Under the pieces are notes generated by a model. It was not told the origin of the DNA. It ran no database searches and saw nothing but the letters and a program-made list of their open reading frames with translations. 64,000 nucleotides of DNA from Alphaproteobacteria bacterium (GTDB lineage Bacteria; Pseudomonadota; Alphaproteobacteria; CAAGCB01; CAG-977): the NCBI GenBank assembly GCA_045587165.1, contig JAZNBT010000055.1, forward strand, positions 7,017 through 71,016. The letters are read 5' to 3'. Positions 1,500 to 54,345 of this stretch are shown here, piece after piece; within the stretch, counting starts at the first letter, position 1, and the number at the start of each line of letters is the position of its first letter. A program made the position numbers and the translations under genes.

Positions 1500-1518
1500 G
1501 TAACATTAAGGGGTATAT

Positions 1519-2601
1519 ATGAAACGTTCGTATGTGGCTTTGCCGGATTATATGATTGGCGAAGATGTTTATTTTAAGGCTGCCGATTTATTGAAAAAGT
1601 ACGGTAAAACAGCTGTCATTGTCGGCGGTAAAACGGCAATGAGCGTCGCCGCGGACGAAATCACGAACGCTTTGGCCGAAGGCGGTGTTTCCGTTTTGGG
1701 ACAGATCTGGTTCGGCGGGGATTCAAACTACGAAAACGTTGAAATGCTGAAACGGGATGAAACGGTTCTACGGGCAGATATCGTTTTGGCCGTCGGCGGC
1801 GGAAAATGTTGCGATACATGCAAAGTTTTGGCCGAGCAGCTGCAAAAACCGTTGTTTACGTTTCCGACGATTTCTTCAAACTGTGCCCCCTGCACGGCTT
1901 TGGCGATCATGTATAACGCGGATGGAAGCTTTAAAAATAATTTTTACAGCACTCAGCCGCCTTTGTGCGTATTTATTAACGATAAAATCATTGCCAAATC
2001 TCCCGTCGAATATCTGCAGGCCGGTATCGGTGACGCTTTAAGCAAAGATCCGGAAGTATCGCTGGCTTTGCGTCATGTCGAATTGGATCAAAATCTGTTG
2101 GTCGGCAAAGCGTTGTGCGCCGCTTGTACGGAACCGCTTTTGAAGTACGGCGAACAGGCGCTGAACGATTGCAAGGCCGGAAAAACGTCGCAGGCTTTGC
2201 AGGAAGTCATTCTGGATATAGTCATTTCAACCGGATTGGTCAGCAATATGACCGTTTGTCCTGAGTTTTATTACAATACCAATTTGGCGCATTGCTTTTA
2301 TTACGGGGCGACGATTTTCCCCGTTTATCATCAGTTTTTGCACGGATTTTGGGTTGCTTTCGGCGTGTTGGTATTATTGCAATACGACGGTCAGACGCAG
2401 CTGCGCGATCGCGTAATGGACTTTTACCGCAAAACGGGATTGCCCGTTACGTTGGAGCAAGTCGGATTGAAACGTGAAGATTTGCCGGCTTTGGTTGACA
2501 AAGCGACAAAGGTTCCCGGTTGGCATGTCGACGGTTACGATTTATCGGCCGAACGTTTTATGCAAGCCGTTATCGATATTGATGATTTGGGAAACAAGTA
2601 A
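1519..2601 (+). CDS. Iron-containing alcohol dehydrogenase family protein (glycerol dehydrogenase-like)
   Basis: 360 aa. GGGK nucleotide-binding loop (VGGGKCCDTCK) and overall Fe-ADH/GldA-like architecture. RBS AAGGGG upstream. Confidence 0.65.
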   Translation: MKRSYVALPDYMIGEDVYFKAADLLKKYGKTAVIVGGKTAMSVAADEITNALAEGGVSVLGQIWFGGDSNYENVEMLKRDETVLRADIVLAVGGGKCCDTCKVLAEQLQKPLFTFPTISSNCAPCTALAIMYNADGSFKNNFYSTQPPLCVFINDKIIAKSPVEYLQAGIGDALSKDPEVSLALRHVELDQNLLVGKALCAACTEPLLKYGEQALNDCKAGKTSQALQEVILDIVISTGLVSNMTVCPEFYYNTNLAHCFYYGATIFPVYHQFLHGFWVAFGVLVLLQYDGQTQLRDRVMDFYRKTGLPVTLEQVGLKREDLPALVDKATKVPGWHVDGYDLSAERFMQAVIDIDDLGNK

Positions 2602-2603
2602 AT

Positions 2604-2632
2604 AAAAAAGGCTCCGGAAGGAGCCTTTTTTA
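2604..2632. terminator. Bidirectional rho-independent terminator between the convergent ADH-like and flavodoxin-like genes
   Basis: Hairpin GGCTCCGGAAGGAGCC flanked by A-run and T-run. Confidence 0.7.
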
Positions 2633-3241
2633 TAAACCGTTTATCCATTCGGCGATTTTGGCTTTAACCGCCTGATCGTATTCTTTACCCATGTTATTAA
2701 AGGATGCGTGCAGCAGAATGTTTGCGTTTTTGGCGGCGGTGGCGAAATCTTCGAAAAACGTTCCGATATTGCTTCCCTGTGTGGAAAAAGGAACAACCTT
2801 TTTTCCTTGAAAATCAATTTGATTTAAAAAGGATAAAACAGGCGTTGCCACGGTGTACCACCAAACCGGCGCGCCGACAAAAACGGTATCGTAGGCCGAT
2901 AAATCGGGTAAAGCTTTCAATGCGGGATATTCTTTTGTTTTGATTTGATTTTTTATTGCCAAATGCAAATTAACACCGCTTGGCAAAGCTTCGGCCGTAT
3001 TTAATTCAAACAAGTCGCCTTTCAGATTTTCGGCAATAATTTCTGCGATCGCTTTTGTCCGGCCGGTCAGAGAATAATAAACGATCAGCGTTTTACCCAA
3101 ATCTTTGTCAACTTCGATCGTTTTTCCGGCATATTGTGCCATTTCCTTTTTGTTTTTAACCGAAACGCGATACAGGTGGATTAAACCGCAAATACCGACG
3201 ACAACAAGAGCTATAACAACAAAAGAAAGAACGTGTTTCAT
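2630..3241 (-). CDS. Flavodoxin-like fold protein with N-terminal membrane anchor
   Basis: 203 aa. N-terminal hydrophobic helix, then flavodoxin-type motif LIVYYSLTGRTK and FMN-binding-like segments. Confidence 0.55.
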   Translation of the reverse strand: MKHVLSFVVIALVVVGICGLIHLYRVSVKNKKEMAQYAGKTIEVDKDLGKTLIVYYSLTGRTKAIAEIIAENLKGDLFELNTAEALPSGVNLHLAIKNQIKTKEYPALKALPDLSAYDTVFVGAPVWWYTVATPVLSFLNQIDFQGKKVVPFSTQGSNIGTFFEDFATAAKNANILLHASFNNMGKEYDQAVKAKIAEWINGL

Positions 3242-3828
3242 TATAAGGCTCCCTTTGTGCTGGGCAGAATTCCTTCGGCACGCGGATCGGATTCGCAGGC
3301 GTGACGTAATGCGCGGGCAAAAGCTTTGAAACAGGATTCGGCCATATGATGCGCATTATCGCCGTACAAATTTTCAATATGGACGGCAGCTTTCAAATTG
3401 TTTGTAACGGCCGCGAAAAATTCTTTGAAAACTTCGGTATCGACATCGCCTACTTTTTCGGACGCAAATTTAACATGCCAGACAAATGCCGGACGTCCGC
3501 TTAAATCAATTACGCAGCGGGTCAACGTTTCATCCATGGGAATACAGGCCGAACCGTAACGGTTGATGCCTTTTTTATCGCCCAAGGCTTGTGATAAAGC
3601 CGTTCCGATGACAATCCCCGCATCTTCTGCCAAATGGTGTGCGTCGACGTTTAAATCGCCCGTAGCGTCGATATTTAAATCGATCAATCCGTGACGGGAC
3701 AGCTGTGCCAACATATGATCTAAAAATCCGCATCCGGTATGAATGTCGTAAGTACCCGTTCCGTCCAAATCGAGTTTGACTTTAATTTGAGTTTCTTCGG
3801 TATTTCGTTTTAATTCGGCGGAACGCAT
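3241..3828 (-). CDS. hisB: Imidazoleglycerol-phosphate dehydratase
   Basis: 195 aa. Conserved IGPD histidine-rich metal-binding motifs (DxHH, HHxxE). Confidence 0.9.
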   Translation of the reverse strand: MRSAELKRNTEETQIKVKLDLDGTGTYDIHTGCGFLDHMLAQLSRHGLIDLNIDATGDLNVDAHHLAEDAGIVIGTALSQALGDKKGINRYGSACIPMDETLTRCVIDLSGRPAFVWHVKFASEKVGDVDTEVFKEFFAAVTNNLKAAVHIENLYGDNAHHMAESCFKAFARALRHACESDPRAEGILPSTKGAL

Positions 3829-3899
3829 TGTTTTTTTCCTTTCTTTTGATAAAAATCTGATTTAAACCACTTTAACGCAGATTTATTAAAGGAGGCTTT

Positions 3900-4442
3900 A
3901 TGGAAAATCAAACGCCGTCTTTACGGGGAACGACAATTTTATGCGTGCGCAAAAACGGATCGGTCGTTATTGCGGGCGACGGACAAGTGACCTTTGGAAA
4001 CACCGTTTTGAAAAGCAATGCCAAAAAAGTCCGCAGATTGGGCAACGGTTCGATTATTGCCGGTTTTGCGGGTGCTACGGCGGATGCTTTTACGTTGTTT
4101 GAACGGTTGGAAGAAAAAATAGAAAAATATTCGGCTCAGTTGACGCGAGCCTGCGTAGAATTGGCCAAAGATTGGCGCACCGACCGTTATTTAAGAAAGC
4201 TTGAAGCGATGATGATTGTCGCGGACAAAGACGTCACCCTTGTTTTAACGGGGAACGGCGACGTCTTGGAACCGCAGCACGGTTTGATCGGCATCGGATC
4301 CGGCGGTTCTTACGCTCAAGCGGCGGCATTGGCCTTGATTGATACGGATTTGTCTGCGGAAGAAATTGTTGCAAAAGCGATGAACATAGCCGCTGATATT
4401 TGCATTTACACCAACCACAACATTATAACGGAAAAATTATGA
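3900..4442 (+). CDS. hslV: ATP-dependent protease subunit HslV
   Basis: 180 aa. N-terminal Thr-protease motif (GTTIL) and strong HslV similarity. RBS AGGAGG upstream. Confidence 0.95.
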
Positions 4443-5749
4443 GTATGTTTTTTTCTCCGCGTGAAATCGTTTCCGAATTGGACAGACACATTATAGGCCA
4501 GAATGAAGCAAAACGCGCCGTAGCGGTTGCTTTGCGCAATCGTTGGCGCAGACAACAGTTGCCGACGGCTTTAAGGGAAGAAGTTGTTCCCAAAAATATT
4601 TTAATGATCGGCCCGACTGGCGTCGGTAAAACGGAAATAGCCCGTCGTTTGGCAAAGCTGGCTCAGGCCCCTTTTATTAAAACCGAAGCGACAAAGTTCA
4701 CCGAAATCGGTTATGTCGGTCGCGATGTCGAAAGCATTATCCGCGATTTGGTGGAAATATCGATTACCATGACGCGCAAAAACATGCGTAAGTCCGTTCA
4801 TGTTAAAGCCGAAGAAGCGGCCGAAAAGCGTGTCATCAACGCTTTGGTCGGTGATAACGCCTCTGATGAAACGCGCCAAAAGTTTCGCAAAATGTTGCGC
4901 GAAGGCGTTCTTGATGAAAAAGAAATCGAAATCGAAGTGCAGGATACGCCGAATAATTCCATGCCGACATTTGATATTCCGGGGATGCCCGGTGCGCAGA
5001 TGGGTATGATTTCCTTGGGGGATTTGCTGGGCGGAAAAGGTACGATTTACCGCAAGAAAAAAATGACGGTCAAAGATTCCTATGATGTCTTGGTAACCGA
5101 AGAAAGCGACAACCTGATCGATCAGGAAAAAGTTGTTAAAGAAGCGATAGCTAACGTTGAAAACAACGGTATTGTCTTTATTGATGAATTTGACAAGATT
5201 TGCGGTCGCAGCGAAGGTAAAAATCCCGATGTGTCTCGCGAAGGCGTGCAACGTGATTTATTGCCTTTGATCGAAGGTTCCACTATCCCGACAAAGCACG
5301 GTTTGGTTAAAACGGATCATATTTTATTTATCGCTTCGGGGGCTTTTCATGTATCGAAACCGTCCGATTTATTGCCTGAATTACAAGGAAGACTGCCGAT
5401 TCGCGTTGAATTAAAGCCTTTAACTCAGGATGATTTTTATAAAATTTTGTGCGAACCGGAAGCAAATCTGATTCTGCAATATAAGGAATTATTGAAAACG
5501 GAAAACTTTACGCTGGAATTTGAAGACGACGCCATTCGTGAAATTGCCGCGGTAGCCGCCGAAGTTAATGAAAATGTAGAAAATATTGGTGCGCGCCGTT
5601 TACATACGATTTTAGAAAAATTGTTGGAAGAAATTTCTTTTACCGCTGCCGAACGTCAAGGGGAAACAGAAATCATTACAAAGGAAAAAGTTTCTGAAAT
5701 GGTCGGTTCTTTGGCAAAACGTTCCGATTTGTCAAAATTCATACTGTAG
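4439..5749 (+). CDS. hslU: ATP-dependent protease ATPase subunit HslU
   Basis: AAA+ Walker [16 protein letters not shown]. Start chosen at the ATG overlapping the hslV stop (ATGA); the track ORF begins 39 nt further upstream. Confidence 0.93.
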
Positions 5750-42393: not shown

Positions 42394-42424
42394 AAAAAAA
42401 GCCCCCGAGAACGGGGGCTTTTTC
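42394..42424. terminator. Bidirectional rho-independent terminator (after rodA on plus, after the Cys-rich protein gene on minus)
   Basis: GCCCCCGAGAACGGGGGC hairpin flanked by A7 and T5. Confidence 0.8.
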
Positions 42425-42441: not shown

Positions 42442-43596
42442 TTACTTAACTGTTAACAGATTGTATGACGGAGATACCAGTAATGTATCTTTCTGAACGG
42501 TCAATGTGCTGTTTGCAGGAAGATTTACAGCTTCAAGCGCAACAGCATCCGACCGGAGAGATACCGCCGTATCAAGCGTGATCGAAGGAGTGTTGGGAAG
42601 CTCTGTATAGGTTGTCTCAATCAATTTGCTGACAGTCTTATCCGATCCCGTTAAGGTGCCGTCCAACTCGACGGCTCTGACAAAGCCCGTATATAAATAC
42701 GGTTTTCTTAACAGCGGTTTTTTAAAGTCGTCCATAACGACATCAACCGCTTCGAACTTCGGCAGGCAAAGATTTAATTTCCTGTTCCAGACCAAGGGTT
42801 TTGCCGTTATGTTTGTATTCAGCTTTGTATACAATGTATTCAATCTGGGCGTACTGGCAACAAGAGTTGGCAGACAGTCACCGCAGCAGGCTTTTCCGGT
42901 GCCGGATCCTACTGTGCATTGTTTTCCGAGCGGACATGTCACGCCGTCACACGGGCTTTTGCAACCGCCGTTTCCGTCGGCGACTTGTACGTTGCTGCAC
43001 TGCGGATCGTTTGTGGATCCCAACGGATACGGTATGCAACGACCGATGCTGCAATAATGTCCCGTACCGCATGTTTTGTTGGTGCACAGAGGGCGCTTGA
43101 TCAAACAGTAGCCTAATGTCGTACATATACCGTTGCTGCCGCAATCACTGTTTTGCGTGCATTGTACGCATTTTCCATTACCGACGCATTTTAAGCCTTT
43201 ATCGGTGCATATCTTTGCCACTTCTGCTCTTTCACAGGGTGTTTTACATGTTCCCTTGTGATTTTCAGCGATACATTGAGAGCCGCTTATGGATGAGCAA
43301 TCAACGTTTTTGCAAGCGGAAACGCACTCGCCGCCGGAGGCACATTTTTCCGTCAGTTCGCAATCGCTGTCGGAAAGACAAACGTCTACAGACGCCGTAC
43401 CGCCTCCACTGCCGAAACCGCCGGTTTCTTTTGACGCAGTGTATGCCGGAGCAGAAATAACAGTCGCGTTTCTACCGATTTTTACCGCTTTTGCGATCAT
43501 AAACGTATCATTTGAAAAAATGCCGGAAGTTTCCGTTGCCTGAACAGGGCTGGCGGCAAACCAGACGGCTGTAAAAAACAAAAACAGTTTTTTCAT
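42442..43596 (-). CDS. Secreted cysteine-rich repeat protein (EGF-like / granulin-like Cys spacing), paralog A
   Basis: 384 aa. Signal peptide (...ASPVQA/TE) and a Gly-rich linker. About 190 aa hold over 40 Cys in repeating C-x4-5-C-x5-C-x4-5-C units ending in CCGDC. The C-terminal Cys-free roughly 140 aa share motifs with the neighbouring paralog. Confidence 0.5.
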   Translation of the reverse strand: MKKLFLFFTAVWFAASPVQATETSGIFSNDTFMIAKAVKIGRNATVISAPAYTASKETGGFGSGGGTASVDVCLSDSDCELTEKCASGGECVSACKNVDCSSISGSQCIAENHKGTCKTPCERAEVAKICTDKGLKCVGNGKCVQCTQNSDCGSNGICTTLGYCLIKRPLCTNKTCGTGHYCSIGRCIPYPLGSTNDPQCSNVQVADGNGGCKSPCDGVTCPLGKQCTVGSGTGKACCGDCLPTLVASTPRLNTLYTKLNTNITAKPLVWNRKLNLCLPKFEAVDVVMDDFKKPLLRKPYLYTGFVRAVELDGTLTGSDKTVSKLIETTYTELPNTPSITLDTAVSLRSDAVALEAVNLPANSTLTVQKDTLLVSPSYNLLTVK

Positions 43597-43629
43597 AAGT
43601 TTTCTCCTTTAATATCTAGGTTTGCCGAT

Positions 43630-44697
43630 TTATTTGGCAACTTTTAACGCTTGCCATTTCGCCTGAGCGGCGACGGTTGCTTCTTCCATCAACACTTTTT
43701 TATTCAGAATTTCTTCCGCAACTACGGGATCGTCTAGAACCAATTTGGCCGTTTCGTCCTTCAAGGCGGCGTCTGTGGCGACCAATTCGAAATTTTCGAT
43801 TTTATATCTGTCAAGCAACACGGGTTTTAACGTGATGCCGGCGTCCGTCGCATCTTTTTGATATTCGCAACAACCGTCGTTACATTCCTGTCCTTCGCCG
43901 CATTTCACGCCGATACATTTCAGGTCGAAATCGATGGGAATGATTTCTGGCTTGCGGCATAGTTTCAACCTGCGGAATTTCTTGTTTGTGATGAATTTGC
44001 TGACCAAAGTTGTATCCAATACGCATTTGCTAGGATATTTGGCACAGTATCCGGCTCTGTTTTTCAACGGGTTGATGGTTTCGACTTCGGGATCCCATTC
44101 CGCGATTTTATACAACTGCGGATGTTTGACCGGCGTAATAAACGGTTTGAATTCATCTACCGTAAGATCGACGGTTTTAAAGCCGTTGTCGTCGACTTCG
44201 AAATCCGTTTTGAATTCTGCCACGTCGACAACATCGCTGTCGAATGTAACGCAGGGAATCGTGTCTATTTGAATGGCCGTATTCGGTAAAGTGGCAACGA
44301 TATCGTCAGAAACCAAATCAACGTCAGTTCTTGTACTGTCGTTTATTTGATCTTCCAAAACAATCCAACGATCGCTCGCTGTAAGAGTTAACAAGTCGGC
44401 TTTTTTAAATTGTGTCGTCGCTACTCCATTAATTGTTCTGACGGTAGTTCCTGTCGTAGTCGTTGTTGTCCCTGTTGTCGGTGTTGTGGTGGTGGGTGTA
44501 TATGTCGAAGTTCCACCGCTGCTGCCGCCGCTGACTCGATCGTCAACAGCCACGGCATATGACGCCTGTTGTTTTGCTACAGTTCCGACAGACGTGCCAT
44601 CCAAATCGGTTGCCACGGCATTCGCCGTTGTTGGCAGGATTGAAACGGCTGCGGGCAGAATCCCTATCGCCGCTGCGTAAAGGAAAAATTTCTTCAT
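43630..44697 (-). CDS. Secreted protein with mucin-like poly-Thr tract and C-terminal Cys-rich module, paralog B
   Basis: 355 aa. Signal peptide (...TTANA/VA) and low-complexity SGGSSGGTSTYTPTTTTPTTGTTTTTTGTT. Shares the LPNT..I..DT and VD..DFK..L.KP.LY motifs with paralog A, and its C-terminus ends in a CGEGQECNDGCC cluster. Confidence 0.5.
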   Translation of the reverse strand: MKKFFLYAAAIGILPAAVSILPTTANAVATDLDGTSVGTVAKQQASYAVAVDDRVSGGSSGGTSTYTPTTTTPTTGTTTTTTGTTVRTINGVATTQFKKADLLTLTASDRWIVLEDQINDSTRTDVDLVSDDIVATLPNTAIQIDTIPCVTFDSDVVDVAEFKTDFEVDDNGFKTVDLTVDEFKPFITPVKHPQLYKIAEWDPEVETINPLKNRAGYCAKYPSKCVLDTTLVSKFITNKKFRRLKLCRKPEIIPIDFDLKCIGVKCGEGQECNDGCCEYQKDATDAGITLKPVLLDRYKIENFELVATDAALKDETAKLVLDDPVVAEEILNKKVLMEEATVAAQAKWQALKVAK

Positions 44698-44749
44698 TAT
44701 ATGAGCCTCCTCTAATGTCTATAAATTTTTCTATATAATGGTAACATTT

Positions 44750-44767
44750 AATTGTGGCAAAATTATG
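44750..44767. repeat. 18-bp direct repeat AATTGTGGCAAAATTATG, copy 1, flanking the G-tract
   Basis: Perfect copy of the 18-mer that recurs at 44836-44853. Confidence 0.8.
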
Positions 44768-44781
44768 TAAATAATATGTTC

Positions 44782-44794
44782 GGGGGGGGGGGGG
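44782..44794. repeat. Homopolymeric G13 tract (C13 on the coding strand), candidate slipped-strand phase-variation switch, about 85-97 bp upstream of the paralog B start
   Basis: 13 consecutive G in an otherwise AT-rich intergenic region; no other homopolymer longer than 9 was noticed in the window. Confidence 0.8.
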
Positions 44795-44835: not shown

Positions 44836-44853
44836 AATTGTGGCAAAATTATG
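44836..44853. repeat. 18-bp direct repeat AATTGTGGCAAAATTATG, copy 2
   Basis: Perfect copy of the 18-mer at 44750-44767. Confidence 0.8.
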
Positions 44854-44956
44854 GCAAAAAATGACAAATTTGTCCGCCATTCTTTTGTTTATGAATTTTT
44901 GATCTTTCGGGCATATTTGAAAATTCCGCCCGTTATTGCAACATGACGCAAAGCAA

Positions 44957-45910
44957 TCAAGGGTGCTTTAATAAATCTTTCAACGATTTCCAATGGTTAA
45001 ACTGAAAATGCGCTTTAATTCTGTCATAGACGGCTTTGTATTTATATCTGCGCAATCCTGAAGAATTCCAGTAATGAAGATATATTTTGTAAGGTTTGAA
45101 AATTGCCGCCGATCCGAACGAATTCCACGGTTTTTCATAGGCGATATAATGAAAAATTCCTGTGTTGTTCATATCTGCGGAATGGAGTGTCCTGAAAATC
45201 TGATTGTTCCATTTCGGATGCAGCGTTACGATGTCATTATTAAATAAACAGTTTAACAAGTCTTGTTCGCCGTATCCTTTATATTTTTTCGGATTTTTTT
45301 CAAAACTGGAAATTATTTTTTCAAACAGATTGTTTTTTTTCCATTTATCCGTATTTATTAAAATAACTCCGGCGTTGTAATAAATATCCGTTGAGCATAT
45401 TCTTCTTAAATCCGGTGAAACATCTTCCACCATTGCGAAAAAATGATTTTTTAAATCCGTTTGGAATATTTCTTTTAAATCTTGCATTACCAACGTGTCC
45501 GCGTCCATATACAAAACTTTGCTTACTTCGTCCGGTAAAAGCGAAGGAATGAACAGCCGCATGAAAGAAATAAAGGATACATGCTTATATTGGGAAGAGT
45601 ACATATGTTTTATTAATGGAAAATATGTCTGATATAACGAAGATTGATGCGGGGAGATAAAATTTATTTTTTGATTTCTTTTTTCAACATACTTTTTCAT
45701 CAGTTTTTTATTTTTTTCGGAAACGTTGTTTTCCAAAATCCAAAAAGTATATTCTGAACCGGATTTGTTGTTTTTTAGAATGGAATTGATGGAAAGAAGT
45801 GTATAAACAGCATAGCTGTCACTGATATTATAGGCAACGTGGACGGCATCATTCGCGATTGTTTTGAATGAAATTAAAATAAATAAAAAAGCTAAAACAA
45901 ACCGTTTCAT
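44957..45910 (-). CDS. Glycosyltransferase family 8 protein (LgtC/glycogenin-like) with N-terminal signal anchor
   Basis: 317 aa. GT8 motifs including DXD (LYMDADTLV) and the C-terminal H-x-x-G-x-x-KPW motif (HYIAYEKPW). N-terminal hydrophobic segment MKRFVLAFLFILISF. Very AT-rich (about 30% GC). Confidence 0.7.
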   Translation of the reverse strand: MKRFVLAFLFILISFKTIANDAVHVAYNISDSYAVYTLLSINSILKNNKSGSEYTFWILENNVSEKNKKLMKKYVEKRNQKINFISPHQSSLYQTYFPLIKHMYSSQYKHVSFISFMRLFIPSLLPDEVSKVLYMDADTLVMQDLKEIFQTDLKNHFFAMVEDVSPDLRRICSTDIYYNAGVILINTDKWKKNNLFEKIISSFEKNPKKYKGYGEQDLLNCLFNNDIVTLHPKWNNQIFRTLHSADMNNTGIFHYIAYEKPWNSFGSAAIFKPYKIYLHYWNSSGLRRYKYKAVYDRIKAHFQFNHWKSLKDLLKHP

Positions 45911-45923
45911 CTGTTTCTCCGGA

Positions 45924-46403
45924 TTAAAAAATAAAATAATATCTCATCAAAAAACTTGTCAAAAGAATGAACGACGAGCCGATGTATTTTATATCTTTGT
46001 TCTTTAAAGACAGCAGTGAAACGGAAAAAATAAGAAAAACAACCGCCTTGTTATATTCCGTTTTTTCAAATTGAATTGCATTTATAAAACCTGTAAATCC
46101 TATGCAAAAAAGGATGAAAGATATAAATAAAACAGTATGATACTTGTAGTAATCTTTTTTATAGATGGATATGATAAATATGGATACAATAAATAAACCT
46201 AAAAACGGGAATAAAAGTGTAAGAATATATACTATGAAATCAAAACAAGACAGCAAGAATAAATCTGCCATGAAAAAAAGATTATATTTTGTAAAAAGAA
46301 TTATTATGCTGTAGAGAATTGTAAAAATAAGTAATTTCATTTTAAACTCCGGATACGGAAAAGATATTTCAGAAAAATCATACTGTCCACAACATTTTTT
46401 CAA
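45924..46403 (-). CDS. Small polytopic membrane protein (4 predicted TM helices), hypothetical
   Basis: 159 aa and very AT-rich; lies 13 bp upstream of the GT8 gene on the same strand. The true start is possibly the internal MKLLIF. Confidence 0.4.
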   Translation of the reverse strand: MKKCCGQYDFSEISFPYPEFKMKLLIFTILYSIIILFTKYNLFFMADLFLLSCFDFIVYILTLLFPFLGLFIVSIFIISIYKKDYYKYHTVLFISFILFCIGFTGFINAIQFEKTEYNKAVVFLIFSVSLLSLKNKDIKYIGSSFILLTSFLMRYYFIF

Positions 46404-46513: not shown

Positions 46514-46590
46514 TGGTGATCTCGCCGCGATTCGAACGCGGGACCCACAGCTTAGAAGGCTGTTGCTCTATCCAGCTGAGCTACGAGACC
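46514..46590 (-). tRNA. tRNA-Arg (anticodon TCT), CCA encoded
   Basis: Manual cloverleaf: acceptor GGTCTCG/CGAGATC, D-arm GCTCAGCTGGATAGAGC, anticodon loop CTTCTAA, T-arm GGGTCCCGCGTTCGAATCGCGGC, discriminator A plus CCA. Confidence 0.9.
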
Positions 46591-47340: not shown

Positions 47341-50300
47341 ATGATGAAAAATCGATTTTTTATAATTTTATGTTTTTTTACATTTTCGGCGTTTCCTGCA
47401 TTTGCCGAAGAGTTAAACTACAATGATTCCGAGACATTTCCGGAATTTTTCAAAAACGTAGATGCTTTGATCGCGATCGGTGCGGATAAAGCCTATACCG
47501 GAGCGGACGGTACGGCATATTCCGGATTTTCAGGGGCGGGAGTGACCGTTGCCGTCATTGATAACGGGACAATGGCGAATCATCCGGATCTCGTGCAGTC
47601 ACACAGCACTCTGCAAAAACCGCAATTTAATATTTCCGCAGAAAAACACGGTACGCACGTCGCCGGTATCATTGCCGCGGAAAAAAACGGTTCCGGAATG
47701 CACGGGGTGGCATATAATTCCGATTTGTTGCTTTTTTCCACTTCACTGGAAGGCGGCTGCGGCGGCATGGAGGGCTGTTTGAGCCCGATGGCGGCTTTAG
47801 AGGCATTGTTGGACAGTGAATACGATGACGTTAAAATTATTAACAACAGTTGGGGGCTTTTTGAAGAGGATATCAACGAAAATGTATTGGCCAATATTCA
47901 TCGGTTGATGGATGCCATCGTCGCCAAAGATAAACTGATCGTTGCTTCCGCCGGAAATGATATGGAGTTGAATCCCAATACTTTTCCCGCCGGTGTCGGG
48001 CTGTTGGATAATTCCTTTAAAAATAATGTAATTAATGTTGTCGCTTATGATTCGTTCAAAAATCATTCCGCTAACGATTTTATCGCGTCTTTTTCCAATT
48101 TGGCAGGTGACGCAAAGGAATGGACTCTGGCCGCCCCCGGAAAAAATATTTATTCTTCGATTTTATATGATGAAACGGCAGACCCTCCCGCGGAAAAATT
48201 CGCTGAGATGAACGGTACATCCATGGCGGCGCCGCTTGTTTCCGGCGCGGCCGCTTTGGTTCAGGAAGCTTTCCCTTATTTAGGCGGCAAACAAATCGCC
48301 GATATTTTGTTTTCTACGGCAAAAAAGAAAAAGGATTTGGATGAAACAGGTTCGGGGCTGAGCCCGTATATGATTCAAAATTATTCGGGACAAACGCGTG
48401 TTTTATTCTTTAAAGATAATAAAGAGGGCACTACGTTTGAAGAAGCCAAAGCTGCCGCCGCTTCGCTCGGATACTCTTGCGGCGGATCCGTTTCCTGTCA
48501 CGAAGTCACGTTTGAAGATGTCTTCGGTCAGGGATTGTTGGATGTCGGGACGGCTGTCAAAGGCATTAAATATTTCGATGCGTCCAGATTGACGGCCGAA
48601 GATTTCGACATAGGAAAAAACCAGTTTTATTACAGTGTTGATACTTTGGGTATGGACAGCGTATGGAGCAACGATATCGGTCAGCTCCGATCAAGCGACG
48701 AATTGTATAAAACGGCGAATGTCGGTTTAAGAAAACGGGGTGAAGGCGTTTTAACCTTGGCCGGAGCAAATACGTTTTTAGGTACTTCGGTCGTTGACGG
48801 CGGTGAATTGAATTTGACGGGCAGCATGGAAGGCGATGTTGTTGTCAATACGGGAACGTTTTCCTTGTCGGATACCGGTTTGATGAACGGCAAAATAACG
48901 ACGAATGCCGACGGATTGTTGCGGATAGAAGATTCCGGAACGCTTTTAAATCTTGAAAATAACGGAAAGACTTTGGCCTCGGGCGGAAAATCAACGGGGA
49001 ATGTTGTTAATAACGGAACGTTTTCCGTCGCCGGAGGAGGTTTTATATCAAGCAGAACATTTACAAATAAAAACAATTTTCAGTTTGAAACCGACGGACG
49101 TTTTTCAGGCGTTTTAGATAACGAAGGGCTTGTTTCCGTTATAGGTAACAGCGAAATAGAAGGAAATCTTAACAACAAATCGTCCGGAATCGTTTTTGTG
49201 AACGCCACGATAGGAAATTCGTCGGCTATAGAGAATTATGGTCTTTTATCCGGTGAAGGCGACATAACGGGATCTGTTGTCAATCATGAATCGGGTACCG
49301 TCGCGACAACATTGAAGATTCATGATTTAAATTCTACCGGAAATATTCAGTTGTCCGAAAATCCGGACGGATTGGCCACTTTGAAGGTCAATACACTGAA
49401 TATTACAGGGGGGGCTTTGACGATCGCAAGCGGTAATATCAGCTATGAAAACGGGCAAACCTATTCGGTGATTGAATTTGATAATCTGACGAGTTTTGAA
49501 AATTTCGAACCGCAATCGAAACTGTCCGATTTTATTGTGGCGACGCCTCATGTAAACGGCAACCGTATTGAAGCCAGAATCGATTATTTGCGTATGGGCG
49601 AATCCGCTGCGACGGAAACATTTCTACCGGAAGAAAAAGTCGTCGCCGGTATTATGGATAAAATGTATTTTGACGACAGTAATAAGGATTTAAAAGGGTA
49701 TTTTTATCTGTCCGGCAAAGAACTGCAAAAGGAAATCAATACGATCCGTTCCAAAGCAAAGCCGATTCAAAAAGAACATTTACCGTTGGCGGGAACAATG
49801 TCTTCACAGGTTTCCAATCATTTATTCAAGGTAAATATGAATCGTGACGCGGCGACGTTTCATCGTCAATACAGACCGATGCAGCAATACAGGGGCCGAT
49901 ATTACAACCGCGGTTCCGTCGGCAGGTATTATCGCGGCAGATCCGGCGGCAGCGCTCCGAAAACGGGAAACAAGATCTGGGGGCAAATTCTGGGCGGCAG
50001 AGTTGTTGAGGAGGACAATGTTTCGGACAGGGGGAATGTCAAAACCAGAACGGTCGGCGGTATGATCGGATACGATCATGAAATTTCATCGCGATCTTTA
50101 ATCGGTATTACGGCCGGTTATGCTTCGGGGCGTTTGACGCAATCTTCGGATGAAATTAACGTTAATGATTATCGCGCGGGGATTTACACGGGATCCAGAT
50201 TCGGCAAACTGACGTTTAACACGATGTTGTTGGGCGGTTTTCAACAATATAAAAGCGAACGGTATACGGAAGCCGCCGGTTTAAATGCTTTGCATCGGGC

Positions 50301-50799
50301 TGATTTTAACGGATATTCCGCGGAATTGGATGTAAATCTGGGCTATGATTTCATGCGTTTGCCGTATCGGGATTATTCTTTTTATCTGCGATCCTATCTG
50401 GCGGCGAACGTCAATTATATTTCTCAGGATTCATATGAAGAAAAAGGGGAATCGCCAATGCTGTTAGGCGTTGACAGCATTAATAACACTTCTGTCAGTA
50501 TTCAGCCGGGGATTACGATCGGTTATACCTTTTCTCAGGCCGTTTTGACGGCTGATTTCGGTTATCAGCGGATTTTAAGCGGTGATTCCGTTCAATCTTC
50601 GGCTTATTTCCTTGCGGATACGGCAAGAACACCGTTTGAATCTTTATCGGCGGAATCGGATAAAGATTATATTAATGCCGGCGTCGGTCTGAAAACAAAC
50701 CTGACCCGTAACGTTGAATTGAATTTGTATGCCGGTATGCGGAAATCCGATAATACCGAGGCGATTAATTTCGCCGCATCGCTGTCGTATGCTTTTTAA
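47341..50799 (+). CDS. Subtilisin-like (peptidase S8) autotransporter, paralog 1
   Basis: 1152 aa. Signal peptide; S8 catalytic triad motifs (VAVIDNGT, HGTHVAGIIAA, GTSMAAPLVSGAAAL); Gly/Asn-rich beta-helix passenger repeats; Tyr/Arg-rich linker; about 280-aa C-terminal beta-barrel ending in SYAF. Confidence 0.85.
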   Translation: MMKNRFFIILCFFTFSAFPAFAEELNYNDSETFPEFFKNVDALIAIGADKAYTGADGTAYSGFSGAGVTVAVIDNGTMANHPDLVQSHSTLQKPQFNISAEKHGTHVAGIIAAEKNGSGMHGVAYNSDLLLFSTSLEGGCGGMEGCLSPMAALEALLDSEYDDVKIINNSWGLFEEDINENVLANIHRLMDAIVAKDKLIVASAGNDMELNPNTFPAGVGLLDNSFKNNVINVVAYDSFKNHSANDFIASFSNLAGDAKEWTLAAPGKNIYSSILYDETADPPAEKFAEMNGTSMAAPLVSGAAALVQEAFPYLGGKQIADILFSTAKKKKDLDETGSGLSPYMIQNYSGQTRVLFFKDNKEGTTFEEAKAAAASLGYSCGGSVSCHEVTFEDVFGQGLLDVGTAVKGIKYFDASRLTAEDFDIGKNQFYYSVDTLGMDSVWSNDIGQLRSSDELYKTANVGLRKRGEGVLTLAGANTFLGTSVVDGGELNLTGSMEGDVVVNTGTFSLSDTGLMNGKITTNADGLLRIEDSGTLLNLENNGKTLASGGKSTGNVVNNGTFSVAGGGFISSRTFTNKNNFQFETDGRFSGVLDNEGLVSVIGNSEIEGNLNNKSSGIVFVNATIGNSSAIENYGLLSGEGDITGSVVNHESGTVATTLKIHDLNSTGNIQLSENPDGLATLKVNTLNITGGALTIASGNISYENGQTYSVIEFDNLTSFENFEPQSKLSDFIVATPHVNGNRIEARIDYLRMGESAATETFLPEEKVVAGIMDKMYFDDSNKDLKGYFYLSGKELQKEINTIRSKAKPIQKEHLPLAGTMSSQVSNHLFKVNMNRDAATFHRQYRPMQQYRGRYYNRGSVGRYYRGRSGGSAPKTGNKIWGQILGGRVVEEDNVSDRGNVKTRTVGGMIGYDHEISSRSLIGITAGYASGRLTQSSDEINVNDYRAGIYTGSRFGKLTFNTMLLGGFQQYKSERYTEAAGLNALHRADFNGYSAELDVNLGYDFMRLPYRDYSFYLRSYLAANVNYISQDSYEEKGESPMLLGVDSINNTSVSIQPGITIGYTFSQAVLTADFGYQRILSGDSVQSSAYFLADTARTPFESLSAESDKDYINAGVGLKTNLTRNVELNLYAGMRKSDNTEAINFAASLSYAF

Positions 50800-50820: not shown

Positions 50821-53800
50821 GTGTTGAAATATAACCTTTTTCCTCTTTTCTTTGCTCTGCCGTTTTCCGCAGCCTTTGCGGCGGATACGGAATATTCCGT
50901 CAATCAAAAAGCTTATGACGCTTTAGGGGCGTCGCAGGCGTATGCGTTGGGCTTTACGGGGGCGGGCGTTACGGTCGCCGTTGTCGACAACGGAACGCTT
51001 GCCACGCATCAGGAATTGAAAGACAAATTCAGCGAACTGCAAAAGGACGAATACAATCATTATCAGGATATTGCGGATCACGGTACGCCGGTTTCCAGTA
51101 TAATTGCCGGAAAAAAGGACGGAACGGGCATGCACGGTATCGCATATGATTCGCAAATCGTCGCTTTCGCCGTAGAGTTGGACGACGGTGTGGATTGTCC
51201 GTCATGCTATCAAGGTTATGCGGAAGCTTGGAATATTCTGGCGACGGATGAATTTGACAGCGTTAAGATTATCAATAACAGTATCGGAAGTTATGATCAT
51301 TTACCTGATTCCACTCCTTCTTCCGATAGAAGAAGCGCGGCGGCGGCTCTGGTCGCAAAGGATAAATTGATTGTTGCGGGTGCGGGAAACGATACTTCTT
51401 TGTCTCCCGCCGACAGTCCGGCCGGGCTGCCTTATTATGATTCCAGTCTGAAGTATAATTTCATCAGCGCGATCGCGTATAATGCATATTATACCTCATC
51501 CAGTCCGTATTTTTTGGAAAGTTATACCAATTTGGCTCAATATGCGCAGGAATGGTCGTTAGCGGCACCGGTCGGATCTTTGAGGGCGGCATCGCATGAA
51601 GGGGATTCTTCCTATACGAATTTTGCCGGAACGTCTGCGGCGACACCGGTTATTTCAGGCGCTGCTGCCGTCGTATCCAGCGCTTTTCCTTATATGGGCG
51701 GGAAACAACTGGCTGACGTTTTGTTTTCCACTGCCGATAAAAATTATGCCGGTTTCAGTGATTATATGATTCAAAAAGATAACGGCAAATTGCAATTTTT
51801 GTTTTTCGGGTCGGCCGACGGATACGGCAAAGATTGGTCGGACGATGAAAAAAAAGCGATCGTTCAAGCGGAAATGGGCGGCGCGTATACGTGTTCGACT
51901 GAAGGCGTTTTTTGTGTCGACGTCAGTTATGCCGACGTTTTCGGCCAAGGGGTGTTAAATTTGGCCAATGCCGTCAAAGGCCCCGGCTATTTGGATGCCA
52001 ATCGTCTGAAGCTTTCCGATTTTACGGGAACGCAGTATGTTTATACGGTCGACGTGCAAGAATATGACAGCACGTGGAGCAATAATATCGGTCAGGTTAA
52101 ATCAAAAACCGAAAATATTGATGCGGACGTCGGCCTGAAAAAACAGGGGGCGGGAACTTTGACCCTTTCCGGACAGAATACGTATTTAGGGACGACGACG
52201 ATTGAAAGCGGTGCATTACGCTTGACAGGAACATTGGCCGGGGATGTGTCCGTCGCTTCGGGAACATTTTATTTAAACGGCGGAACCGTTTTCGGAAAAA
52301 CGGTTTCTTTGGCCGGCGGGGAAGTTAATGTTGACGGCGGAACGTTATTTTCGCTCAGCGGAGCCGGAACGGTTAACTTTTCGGCGGGATCTGTTCGAGA
52401 GGTGAAAAATCAGGGGAATTTTTACCTGACGGGAAGCGGGCTTATTGCCGATTCGGTCGAAAATACCGGACAATTTTATTTTAACGGCGGTTCGATAAAA
52501 GGTTCCGTTTCAAACGAAGGGAATTTTTATTTAAACAATCCGTCGTTTTCTCAAAAAATCCAAAATACGGGAACGGTTCAAAACAATACGTTATTGAAAG
52601 AAGGGTTGGTTATCGGCGGAACGTTGGTTAATCAGGCAGGAGGTCTTCTTTATTTGACTTCGACACCGGATACGTTGATCAATTACGGCGGAATAGTTTT
52701 ATCTCCTTCGTCGACAGATGCCTCCGTTTTACAGCAAATGACGGTTTCTCATTTAACGTTGGCCGGCGGAGGATTTGTGCTGGATACGAATAATTTGCCG
52801 GAATTCGGGGAAGGAATGTCCTATCAGATTTTAAAGGCTGAAAATTCTTTAAGTATCGGTGATGATTTTAAGCTTTCCGATCAGATCGGCCAATTTATTG
52901 TCGCCCGAACGAATGTAGACAACACGGAAAGAACGATTTCTTTATCATTGGAGTTTTTGCCTTTATCTTCAACGTCTTATGCTCCGAATTTAACGGAAAT
53001 GGAACGTCAAACGGCGACGGTGATCGATCGTTTGTTTAAAAACGAACATTTCAATGATTTCTCGGGATTTTATTTCTTGGATGAAAAAGGTTTGAAAGAT
53101 CGGATAAATAAAATAAAAGATCAGGTAAAACCGGTTCATTTTGCTTCTTTGCCGTTGTCAAACAGGTTGGGACGGACGATCCAAACACATCTTTTTGAAC
53201 GTCAAACCGGTAAAGATCCGTATCGGTATAACGGCGGACGGCGGTATTATGAACCGTTATCCCCCGGTCGCCATTCGCCGCGAGGGGACGTATACCGCAA
53301 TTATCGTCCCGGTAATACGCCTCAGGAAAATTATCGTCATGCCGTTCCGCGGACGAATGATGTGTACCGCAATTATCGTCCGGGTAATGCGCCTCAAGAA
53401 AATTATCGTTATTATGTGCCGCGCAAACGCGACGTTTACCGTAATTTCAGACCGAACGGTCGTTCCGGCGGACAATCGTTCGGTATGCGGACAAACGTTT
53501 GGGGGCAAATGTTGTATGCCAAAAGCACGTATGATGCCGATGAGCTTTCCGGCGGGACCGAAGCCGAGGGCACCGGCATAGGGCTGATGTTCGGATGGGA
53601 TTTCGTTTATTCGAAAGACTTTTTGTGGGGGGTGACGGCCGGATATGCACAGTCGTCCGTTGAACAAGACGACGACAATACCGATGTGACCGATTTGCGT
53701 TTCGGCGCCTATTTCAGTCGACAAAAGGATTTTTTGTCCGTTGACGGCGTATTGATGATCGGATTGCAAAGTTATGATAAAAAACGCGTTACGGATTTGC

Positions 53801-54345
53801 CGATGAAGACGTTTGAACATTCGGCGTCTTTTAACGGAACCAGTGTTGAGGCCGCTTTGAATGTAGGATATGACCTGCATCAGATTCCCATGCAGGCGGG
53901 CGATTGGTCTTTCAGGCCTTATATCGGTGCGACGGTTATACAGATGACGCAAGACGCCTACAGTGAAACAGGTTCATCTGATCTGAATTTATCCGTACAG
54001 GAAGCCAAAGACACTTCCGTTATTTTATCCCCCGGTTTAATTGCCGGATTTGTCGCCGCAGATACGAGTCTTTTCTTGATCAAGCCGGAATACGTCTTTT
54101 TTGATTTGCGTTATGATCAATATTTATCGGGGGGGAATGCCTCGACAAAAGCTTATTTCAGTGCGGATACGCTGCAGACGATGTTTGAATCTCCGGACAG
54201 TGAAGAAAAATCCGCGTTTACGTTCGGGGTAGGCGTTAACGGCCGTATATCTAAAAATACGCGTTTGAACTTGCTGTTCAGCAACAGAGCCGGTTCTAAA
54301 TCGTCTTCGCAGTCGATTTCGGCGACACTGATTCATTCGTTCTGA
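50821..54345 (+). CDS. Subtilisin-like (peptidase S8) autotransporter, paralog 2
   Basis: 1174 aa with GTG start after an AGAGGG RBS. S8 motifs (VAVVDNGT, HGTPVSSIIAG, GTSAATPVISGAAAV); beta-helix passenger; internal 72-bp tandem repeats; C-terminal barrel ending in IHSF. Confidence 0.85.
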   Translation: MLKYNLFPLFFALPFSAAFAADTEYSVNQKAYDALGASQAYALGFTGAGVTVAVVDNGTLATHQELKDKFSELQKDEYNHYQDIADHGTPVSSIIAGKKDGTGMHGIAYDSQIVAFAVELDDGVDCPSCYQGYAEAWNILATDEFDSVKIINNSIGSYDHLPDSTPSSDRRSAAAALVAKDKLIVAGAGNDTSLSPADSPAGLPYYDSSLKYNFISAIAYNAYYTSSSPYFLESYTNLAQYAQEWSLAAPVGSLRAASHEGDSSYTNFAGTSAATPVISGAAAVVSSAFPYMGGKQLADVLFSTADKNYAGFSDYMIQKDNGKLQFLFFGSADGYGKDWSDDEKKAIVQAEMGGAYTCSTEGVFCVDVSYADVFGQGVLNLANAVKGPGYLDANRLKLSDFTGTQYVYTVDVQEYDSTWSNNIGQVKSKTENIDADVGLKKQGAGTLTLSGQNTYLGTTTIESGALRLTGTLAGDVSVASGTFYLNGGTVFGKTVSLAGGEVNVDGGTLFSLSGAGTVNFSAGSVREVKNQGNFYLTGSGLIADSVENTGQFYFNGGSIKGSVSNEGNFYLNNPSFSQKIQNTGTVQNNTLLKEGLVIGGTLVNQAGGLLYLTSTPDTLINYGGIVLSPSSTDASVLQQMTVSHLTLAGGGFVLDTNNLPEFGEGMSYQILKAENSLSIGDDFKLSDQIGQFIVARTNVDNTERTISLSLEFLPLSSTSYAPNLTEMERQTATVIDRLFKNEHFNDFSGFYFLDEKGLKDRINKIKDQVKPVHFASLPLSNRLGRTIQTHLFERQTGKDPYRYNGGRRYYEPLSPGRHSPRGDVYRNYRPGNTPQENYRHAVPRTNDVYRNYRPGNAPQENYRYYVPRKRDVYRNFRPNGRSGGQSFGMRTNVWGQMLYAKSTYDADELSGGTEAEGTGIGLMFGWDFVYSKDFLWGVTAGYAQSSVEQDDDNTDVTDLRFGAYFSRQKDFLSVDGVLMIGLQSYDKKRVTDLPMKTFEHSASFNGTSVEAALNVGYDLHQIPMQAGDWSFRPYIGATVIQMTQDAYSETGSSDLNLSVQEAKDTSVILSPGLIAGFVAADTSLFLIKPEYVFFDLRYDQYLSGGNASTKAYFSADTLQTMFESPDSEEKSAFTFGVGVNGRISKNTRLNLLFSNRAGSKSSSQSISATLIHSF
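53287..53460 (+). repeat. About 2.4 tandem copies of a 72-bp coding repeat (DVYRNYRPGN(T/A)PQENYR) in the autotransporter 2 linker
   Basis: Units at 53287-53337 and 53359-53409 are near-identical (3 mismatches), and a degenerate third unit follows. Confidence 0.8.

Follow-up and report, generated by a model that had tools for sequence, protein, structure and literature searches.

The closest described counterparts of the locus presented here are the fim promoters of Bordetella, in which transcription is set by the variable length of a C-stretch (C7-C22, interrupted in some cases) that separates the fim box from the -10 box (PMC1891110). A similar layout was found in a 64,000-nucleotide (nt) stretch of contig JAZNBT010000055.1 (assembly GCA_045587165.1) of an uncultured alphaproteobacterium, hereafter called the window, where a run of 13 C precedes two adjacent genes, B and A, both encoding predicted exported proteins with multiple Cys residues. 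We consider B-A to be a phase-variable contingency locus for a pair of exported disulfide-rich, possibly disulfide-linked, envelope or surface proteins of a small uncultured clade of Alphaproteobacteria, and assign this reading a probability of roughly 0.55; control of transcription by tract length, surface exposure and complex formation are the parts of it that we infer. As a promoter-tract phase-variation switch the locus would belong to an already known regulatory kind, present here in an unstudied bacterial group, and its two proteins belong to uncharacterised families.

The resemblance to the fim2, fim3, fimX and fimN promoters of B. pertussis and B. bronchiseptica covers several features. 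In both systems, genes for exported envelope proteins carry a long poly-C tract in their promoter, between a conserved upstream element and the -10; strains differ in the length of the tract (C7-C22 there, C7-C18 here) and interrupted versions occur (C9TC8 there, C5TC10 here) (PMC1891110). Two characteristics of a fim-type promoter, namely a long tract upstream of the -10 (assigned here by consensus) and length polymorphism with conserved flanks, were found before B. The two systems differ in that the present one belongs to an unrelated alphaproteobacterium, concerns non-fimbrial genes (with no usher or chaperone nearby) and has a tract flanked by two direct-repeat boxes of 19-25 nt, the segment between which was lost in one strain. 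Moreover, no activator of the BvgA type was identified, and dependence of transcription on tract length is proposed here by analogy. The genes and their predicted transcription signals are:

44836..44860, minus strand: box 1, the distal direct repeat, GCCATAATTTTGCCACAAT at 44837-44855, with a -35-like CGGACA at 17 nt and a TG; candidate promoter P1
44795..44805, minus strand: TCAATAAGTTA element directly 5' of the C-tract, conserved among the aligned upstream regions (TCAATAWGTT); putative activator site or UP element
44782..44794, minus strand: poly-C tract, 13 C, at the -35 position relative to the CATAAT of box 2; candidate slipped-strand switch
44750..44774, minus strand: box 2, the proximal direct repeat, core CATAATTTTGCCACAAT at 44751-44767, -10-like CATAAT followed by TTGCCA; pattern match at 44751-44769
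43630..44697, minus strand: gene B, 355 amino acids (aa), operon gene 1, exported protein of an unannotated family; open reading frame (ORF) call, GGAGG ribosome-binding site at 44706-44710
42442..43596, minus strand: gene A, 384 aa, operon gene 2, exported Cys-rich repeat protein; ORF call, AAGGAG ribosome-binding site at 43604-43609
42394..42421, minus strand: intrinsic terminator 3' of A, GCCCCCG-TTCT-CGGGGGC and a T-run, read from the sequence

Both ORFs, which are on the minus strand, agree in position and length with the original prediction, which had been made from the letters of the window alone, and its further statements that each product has a Sec signal peptide (MKK, a hydrophobic core and an AxA-like site, read from the sequence) and a Cys cluster containing CC were confirmed, with C237/C238 of A and C276/C277 of B being invariant or nearly so within their families. 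B and A are predicted to constitute a minus-strand operon and to be co-transcribed, because strong ribosome-binding sites precede them, the spacer between them (33 nt in the window) measures 33-34 nt at every locus compared and a terminator follows A. The same hairpin, with its T-run, would also terminate transcription on the plus strand, after the convergent rodA gene; all sub-threshold Rfam matches to leaders or small RNAs were located on it.

The region upstream of B, which is not covered by the coordinates of the original prediction, yielded the most informative result. The order of elements in it is box 1, an AT-rich stretch, TCAATAAGTTA, 13 C, 14 nt, box 2, 53 nt and the ATG. Box 1 and box 2 form a 25-nt direct repeat, and the tract, which is separated from the CATAAT of box 2 by 14 nt and lies 88-100 nt upstream of the ATG, is the only C or G run of at least 10 in the 64 kb. 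The promoter box occurs in the window only before B. Among the 120 metagenome matches listed for its 17-mer, a single one had the tract and box 1 as well, and this was itself a B ortholog; in the window and among these matches, the combination of box and tract was seen before B genes only. Relatives are designated below by L-numbers (loci) and P-numbers (proteins). This arrangement (box 1, AT-rich spacer, TCAATAWGTT, C-tract, 12-14 nt, CATAAT-TTY-GCCACAAT, 49-55 nt, ATG) also precedes orthologs with proteins of 35-50% identity, and was located, among other loci, at L001 5828-5945 and L008 4262-4408 in addition to the window. The core of box 2 was invariant in all eight aligned upstream regions, and box 1 was conserved in L001, L003, L004, L006, L007 and L008. 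Box 2 is separated from the ATG by 53-55 nt in the close relatives (49 in L008), and from the tract by a constant 14 nt in the close relatives.

It was the length of the tract that varied. Before B orthologs it ranged from 7 to 18 overall and from 13 to 18 between species. Within one species, in front of identical or nearly identical B genes, tracts of 7, 8, 11, 12, 12, 13, 13, 14 and 15 C or C5TC10 were found, while the flanks of 14 and 55 nt remained constant. The maintenance of a long tract across species whose proteins share 35-50% identity argues for selection on the tract itself. A further form was observed in L009 (positions 1-140), a strain with proteins 92-97% identical to those of the window: it carries a single hybrid box and lacks the segment of about 86 nt between the boxes, including the tract. 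Recombination between the direct repeats would be expected to yield this form, which possibly represents a locked state.

According to the proposed mechanism, the poly-C tract would be a hypermutable promoter component placed between a conserved upstream element and the -10-like CATAAT, and slipped-strand changes of its length would alter promoter geometry and thereby switch or tune transcription. A different promoter, made of the TTGCCA of box 2, 17 nt and TATATA, would put the tract at about -46 to -58. The parallel with the fim promoters holds under both assignments. Two other modes of control were considered and rejected, namely an invertible promoter, as the window shows one 25-nt direct repeat and a weak 17-nt inverted repeat across the start codon, with no flanking inverted repeats, and a cis-regulatory RNA or riboswitch, as the leader has no Rfam match and folds as an unstructured RNA (z=0.14).

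Variation was also found within the genes. The B genes of the window and L009 share at least 92% nt identity per 60-nt block (mostly at least 97%), except for nt 60-180, with 62-72%, a divergent patch that codes for the beginning of the mature protein. Among 10 B alleles from a different species, 14 of the 17 variable columns correspond to residues 19-38. The mature N-terminus of B is a variation hotspot in two different species. Null alleles circulate as well: in L012-L016 (e.g. L013 2125-3151) a 32-bp frameshifting deletion divides B into ORFs of 114 and 216 aa, and this allele was present in about 50 contigs of a related species, which indicates that B is dispensable in vivo. Repeated slippage as the source of the recurrent 216-aa forms was rejected, since all of them represent this one deletion allele. 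In L012 and L015 (3151-4210), A is absent, a resolvase gene (PF00239) directly follows the frameshifted B, the upstream zf-CDGSH and ABC transporter genes are truncated and the tracts are the shortest observed (C8 and C7). A recombinase may have brought about this layout by rearrangement; L001 and L003 also carry a resolvase gene, about 6 kb upstream. The N-terminal hotspot, the null alleles of B and the loci lacking A may be regarded as signs of external selection.

Uncultured Alphaproteobacteria are recurrent and essentially unstudied members of the human gut microbiota, and to our knowledge their cell surface and their ways of dealing with host immunity and phages have hardly been characterised. 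The host clade of the B-A locus is apparently a gut one, as suggested by the sample names ZEEV15 and ASCI21, which point to human-gut cohorts; this assignment was made from record names, and a literature search on the host lineage yielded nothing useful. With its conserved operon, the putative homopolymer switch in the promoter, the hypervariable tip of one protein and the null alleles in circulation, the locus is a concrete and testable candidate for a contingency locus in this group, one which could be examined directly in existing metagenomic and metatranscriptomic reads.

Protein B is composed of the following segments:

44617..44697, minus strand: signal peptide, residues 1-27, predicted cleavage after ANA; MKKFFL invariant; paired with the A signal peptide by hhalign
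44512..44616, minus strand: hypervariable mature N-terminus, residues ~28-62
44443..44511, minus strand: Thr-rich low-complexity linker TSTYTPTTTTPTTGTTTTTTGTT, residues 63-85; found only in the window, P0015 and P0087
44260..44289, minus strand: LPNTAIQIDT string (motif 1 of the original prediction), not conserved in orthologs
43963..44205, minus strand: central alpha/beta domain, residues 165-245, predicted local distance difference test (pLDDT) 70-88; invariant P193, L195, W201, P203, C218 and C225
44110-44172, minus strand: DEFK...PQLY string, within the central domain
43867..43917, minus strand: Cys knot, C261-IGVK-C-GEGQE-C-NDG-CC277, with invariant Cys and Gly columns
43633..43866, minus strand: tail, residues 278-355, long helix at 324-354, ending in ...WQALKVAK; weak collinear match to the A tail

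The protein has 9 Cys. Its AlphaFold2 (AF2) model (mean pLDDT 51) comprises the alpha/beta domain of residues 165-245, the knot and the long C-terminal helix, and had no Foldseek fold match in PDB or BFVD. The Thr-rich segment, in place of which other B orthologs carry a repeat-like 'LNASQTKTLTSTQLKALDSSALQAVKVSDLD' segment, could be a linker of the O-glycosylation type. Taken together, B would start with its signal peptide and a hypervariable tip at the mature N-terminus, continue with the alpha/beta domain and a single knot of the kind found in A, and end in a helical tail.

Protein A is built differently:

43534..43596, minus strand: signal peptide, residues 1-21, predicted cleavage after VQA; MKKLF invariant
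43474..43518, minus strand: N-terminal motif FSNDTFMIAKAVKIG, residues 27-41, consensus [VL]F.D..[ST]F.[VI]A[KRA][AS]VKLG
42874..43380, minus strand: Cys-rich repeat core, residues 73-241, 28 Cys, ~6-7 beta-hairpin units, pLDDT ~80
42874-42963, minus strand: last unit of the core, residues 212-241, the knot shared with B; FOLN matches of orthologs fall here
42445..42873, minus strand: tail, residues 242-384, invariant C277, D290 and Y302, low pLDDT
42691-42747, minus strand: DDFK string, within the tail
42568-42600, minus strand: LPNT string, within the tail

All but one of its 29 Cys lie within residues 73-241, and this core is the only confident part of the AF2 model (pLDDT ~80, short beta-hairpins; mean of the whole model 57). 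The original prediction had counted about six tandem C-x4-5-C-x5-C-x4-5-C units there; in this strict form the unit occurs three times, and 6-7 four-Cys units can be counted if looser spacing is admitted. A would thus start with a signal peptide and the N-terminal superfamily motif; behind a Gly-rich linker, about 6-7 EGF/FOLN-like disulfide hairpins would form a rod, and the tail that follows is poorly predicted.

Searches with the window proteins against Pfam (at E<=1), PHROGs and PADLOC gave no match for A or B, and NCBIfam gave none that reached its cutoff. The gathering threshold of Pfam FOLN (PF09289; 21.1 bits) was reached by neither of them, and among the A orthologs P0002 alone exceeded it (23.8 bits, model positions 1-14 of 22), the others scoring 16-17 bits. 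For Pfam Dickkopf_N (PF04706; threshold 25 bits) the best scores were 17.3 and 16.5 bits, in the distant orthologs P0012 and P0013, with none for the window protein, and orthologs of A also gave sub-threshold Dumpy and WAP matches (WAP in one ortholog, 15.5 bits versus a cutoff of 20.8). Foldseek searches with the A model returned EGF arrays and knottins, none of them significant (E>=0.07), and sequence-profile searches of the PDB nothing below E=0.1. With these eukaryotic extracellular modules A has in common the C-x4-C-x5-C spacing, a conserved Gly, predicted beta-hairpins and the location of the ortholog FOLN matches on the knot shared with B; it differs in that the window proteins have no match and one ortholog passes on a partial model, and any common descent would be conjectural. 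The nearest bacterial model is NCBIfam TIGR04201 (Myxo_Cys_RPT), describing secreted tandem C..D.DC..G..C repeats of Myxococcales. Residues 143-158 of A correspond to its positions 2-17 of 22, with a score (14.8 bits, E=0.023) under the 25-bit cutoff, while the taxon is another one and the VKLG motif and tail of A are outside that family. 'EGF/Dickkopf-like' is a reasonable description of the module type in A, and to this extent the claim that modules rare in bacteria are present can be retained, weakly, as a statement on the type of module and not on membership in a curated family; the A profile matched 61 proteins at E<=1e-3 among 1.84 billion representatives. A likeness of the A string 'DTFTVAA' to a TonB box (FhuA DTITVTA) was not relied on, because the core of the superfamily motif is F..A.AVKLG and not D-T-x-x-V.

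The N-terminal motif of A, [VL]F.D..[ST]F.[VI]A[KRA][AS]VKLG, recurs in 31 representative proteins, which measure 97-791 aa and contain as many as 110 Cys, and in no member of the B family. These define an unnamed alphaproteobacterial superfamily of predicted secreted proteins, with a VKLG motif followed by EGF-like Cys repeats, which no current domain library describes. All of its proteins (P0026-P0079) are hypothetical, and the sole organism name seen is that of an alphaproteobacterial metagenome-assembled genome (HBO58883.1). Members such as HBO58883.1, P0045 and P0065 resemble A in the signal peptide, N-terminal motif, linker and first Cys repeats, and some have a terminal PC.GV.CP.G..C...CC knot; they differ from it in size, Cys content and C-termini, and are encoded in other, unrelated contexts without a B partner or a promoter C-tract. 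Two small orphan families, together with this larger VKLG/EGF-like Cys-repeat superfamily, have been delineated. Within the superfamily, a C10 run was observed in the P0045 gene (L139 2395-2404, L140 2393-2402) just past the signal peptide, where it encodes TPPPL (PPPP in P0070, PPP in P0049), and may be an intragenic phase-variation tract of the frameshift type. Directly upstream of the P0057 gene (L138 2-454), a Cys-rich protein of CxxC furin/VSP-like repeats is encoded, and these bacteria thus seem to cluster several kinds of Cys-rich secreted protein.

The parity of Cys residues is conserved in both families. All 15 B-family members have exactly 9 Cys, of which seven are invariant and the remaining two are exchanged as a unit, the pair 149+247 being replaced by 189+196 in a divergent subclade. 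Two Cys that form a disulfide would be expected to behave in this way, and one Cys is then left unpaired. In the A family, 15 of 17 members have an odd mature Cys count (23, 29, 31, 33 or 35), the count of 23 belonging to P0011, which lacks part of the knot; the exceptions are P0007, with R for the second C of CC, and P0026, which has a different C-terminus. Since the count is odd in both families, each mature protein may keep one unpaired Cys, and the isolated invariant C277 of A is the obvious candidate. A disulfide-linked complex, either A-B or a homodimer, may be envisaged speculatively. Carried further, an A-B heterodimer would form a phase-variable, Cys-stapled surface structure (coat, fibril or adhesin), in which the A rod carries or anchors B, the B tip faces the host or phages and the poly-C tract toggles the whole; in this complete form the idea is tentative and we hold it to be unlikely. 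If it were true, the pair would correspond in bacteria to the variant surface proteins of protists, and would come from families without a characterised member. Giardia variant-specific surface proteins (VSPs) are exported, very Cys-rich and subject to on/off variation of the surface coat, while the Chlamydia OmcA and OmcB genes are adjacent and encode Cys-rich products that are disulfide cross-linked in the envelope. Both are analogies to A and B, with no sequence relationship (no Pfam match at E<=1) and with different switching mechanisms.

Several points weigh against the interpretation of B-A as a phase-variable surface locus. At the promoter, the -10 was assigned by a consensus match only, box 1 resembles a complete upstream promoter which would read through the tract, and tract lengths were taken from contigs of different assemblers, long homopolymers being error-prone. 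As to the proteins, both AF2 models are poor overall (mean pLDDT of 57 for A and 51 for B), and neither A nor B has a beta-barrel, a lipobox or a recognised secretion signal, so both may stay in the periplasm and surface placement is presumed. The odd Cys parity could equally fit a free thiol, a metal ligand or homodimers. Finally, a default hhalign comparison of A with B aligned the signal peptides only, and their homology would rest mainly on a small Cys knot that is also present in P0048 and P0057 of the wider superfamily.

The relationship between the two proteins was analyzed with hhalign on sub-alignments, with column-shuffled controls keeping the composition, including Cys content. A collinear comparison of A 212-384 with B 255-355 scored 35.3 versus 11.7±2.1 (0 of 100 shuffles; P ~2e-5; probability 68-78%), i.e. 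about 11 standard deviations (SD) above the controls. The knot alone scored 20.9 versus 9.8±2.8, and the tail alone 19.3 versus 9.7±2.0 (about 4.8 SD; E ~0.009-0.06). The collinear alignment pairs C-x-GV-x-C-x2-G-x2-C...CC of both proteins, with A 216-238 on the B knot; behind it, '..EYKFVADDFKLVAKP' of A is aligned with '..KYKIxDLELVAxP' of B, and the extreme C-termini are alike (...LQQLKVAQ in A, ...WQALKVAK in B). Searches with profile hidden Markov models (HMMs) gave a mixed picture. The top foreign match of the B-module HMM was the A-family protein P0014 (E=2e-4) and A-family members made up 8 of the 10 best foreign matches of the B-tail HMM, whereas the A-module HMM placed P0048 (35 bits), which carries two copies of the knot, and P0057 far above any B member (best E=0.18). 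HMM-against-sequence support for A-B homology is marginal, and decoys with the same knot score higher.

It could be that A and B are non-homologous proteins, alike only in their signal peptides and in a generic small Cys hairpin of convergent origin or derived from a mobile module, with a purely functional link through the operon. The default alignment, the preference of the A-module HMM for knot-bearing proteins outside the B family, the duplicated knot of P0048 and the weak tail-only match speak for such independence. On the other hand, the collinear scores lie far above the shuffles, the B-tail HMM favours A-family members and the C-termini are similar, and we regard non-homology as somewhat unlikely. 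We conclude that a small, recurrent Cys module is common to A and B, perhaps together with the tail that follows it, and that the order of these parts is identical in the two proteins. Homology is plausible, and any relation between them would run through these two segments only. The paralogy of A and B claimed originally is suggested, weakly, by the collinear knot and tail, and its shuffled form was not sustained.

A second explanation concerns the promoter. The differences in poly-C length could be assembly or sequencing noise and the boxes an ordinary regulator-binding promoter, in which case the operon would not be phase-variable. Homopolymers longer than 10 are indeed error-prone and the contigs came from several assemblers, box 1 with its own -35 and -10 could drive constitutive read-through, and the leader has no special structure. 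Against this, a range of 7-18 on nearly identical flanks is far beyond an error of ±1, the long tract is maintained between species with 35-50% identical proteins and the loci with the shortest tracts (C7, C8) are precisely those that have lost A and carry a frameshifted B, so that noise appears clearly improbable to us.

The genomic distribution bears on a third possibility. Homologs were found in about 14 clusters for A and 14 for B among 5.8 billion; none of these clusters is named or has a Pfam domain, and they are paired one-to-one on the same contigs, always convergent to rodA-mrdA-mreDCB. An exhaustive HMM search with the A profile of the 1.84 billion representatives returned about 5 full-length clusters and about 55 weak matches to the Cys repeats and/or the N-terminus. 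The organism names seen for homologs were 'Alphaproteobacteria bacterium' and 'uncultured Rhodospirillaceae bacterium UMGS1296'; the suggested homologs in amoeba-associated or other intracellular bacteria did not appear, every source name seen being that of a metagenome-assembled genome of uncultured Alphaproteobacteria or Rhodospirillaceae. Given these constant neighbours, A and B could be periplasmic elongasome or cell-wall factors, and the synteny is indeed kept in all loci, including members of about 33-37% identity. We find this very unlikely. The convergent orientation and the intervening terminator mean that the operon is not co-transcribed with rodA, and some relatives have an unrelated 736-aa gene between A and rodA (by reading of its translation, a polytopic membrane protein with a spermidine-synthase-like end). 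Null and deleted alleles, unexpected for a core morphogenetic factor, circulate; the hypervariable tip and the C-tract indicate external selection; and synteny within one small clade may be mere inheritance.

A fourth account, that of the original prediction, regarded A and B as paralogs with two non-Cys motifs rearranged by domain shuffling or circular permutation. The literal strings exist (LPNTPSITLDT at 333 and VDVVMDDFKKPLLRKPYLY at 284 in A, LPNTAIQIDT at 137 and VDLTVDEFKPFITPVKHPQLY at 176 in B) and do occur in opposite order. The patterns given for them did not hold as written, since the first fits A only (B requires a one-residue gap) and the second fits neither protein because the spacing differs, and neither did the similarity exceed chance. 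The two proteins share two exact 4-mers (LPNT, LDGT) versus a shuffle mean of 2.1, and in Smith-Waterman comparisons of their non-Cys regions 71 of 1000 shuffles scored at least as high as observed. LPNT..I..DT is restricted to the window proteins and the 92-97% identical twin strain, being absent from every other A and B ortholog. The second string fares somewhat better, as the DDFK/DEFK stretch is the best high-scoring pair in BLASTP (E=0.052, single comparison) and D290/F291/Y302 of A and F183/P193/L195 of B are conserved columns in alignments of 11-15 sequences; even so, DEFK is replaced by SEFK or NTYK in divergent B members and the best profile alignment pairs DDFK of A with the post-knot 'KDLEL' of B. 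The swapped pairing itself (A tail with B middle in hhalign) scored 17.7 versus 12.3±2.6, a value reached by 5 of 100 column shuffles, and aligned four columns only, i.e. the shared word HPQL and not DDFK with DEFK. The two motifs are best taken as coincidental matches and the shuffling or permutation scenario as scarcely credible. Short strings common to two low-complexity secreted proteins should be read with caution: those shared by A and B were chance matches, and the real, weaker relationship is collinear. LPNT was also rejected as a sortase signal of the LPXTG type, given its location (residue 137 of 355 in B, 333 of 384 in A), the lack of a hydrophobic or basic tail behind it and its absence from orthologs.

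A role of A as a secreted protease inhibitor with several heads, or as an array of toxin-like knottins, is equally hard to believe. It might be imagined in the protease-rich gut lumen from Foldseek and PDB-sequence matches to the squash trypsin inhibitors EETI-II and MCoTI-II and to RhTx (about 22 residues, 1.6-2.4 Å root-mean-square deviation) and from the WAP match of one ortholog, but none of them reaches significance (Foldseek E>1; sequence E 0.11-0.25; WAP under its cutoff) and they span a single hairpin.

Regarding the surroundings of the operon, the region upstream differs between the window and its relatives. Between tRNA-Arg(TCT) and B-A, in the region of 44957-46403 (minus strand) and 46514-46590, the window contains a GT8 glycosyltransferase gene, whose product has an N-terminal hydrophobic segment, and a gene for a polytopic membrane protein of 159 aa, where relatives carry a zf-CDGSH gene. 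The GC content of this patch is 37%, versus about 45%, and it may be a small island inserted at the tRNA. In L001-L004 (~850-4980), upstream of zf-CDGSH and the B-A operon, a 197-aa ORF, a C39 peptidase fragment, an ABC exporter and an AprE/HlyD-like protein are encoded, an exporter set of the bacteriocin type that is not at that position in the window. Further along the window, on the plus strand, there are two tandem subtilase (S8) autotransporter genes with PATR repeats (47341-50799 and 50821-54345), each encoding about 1150 aa; the pair is followed by fliP on the opposite strand.

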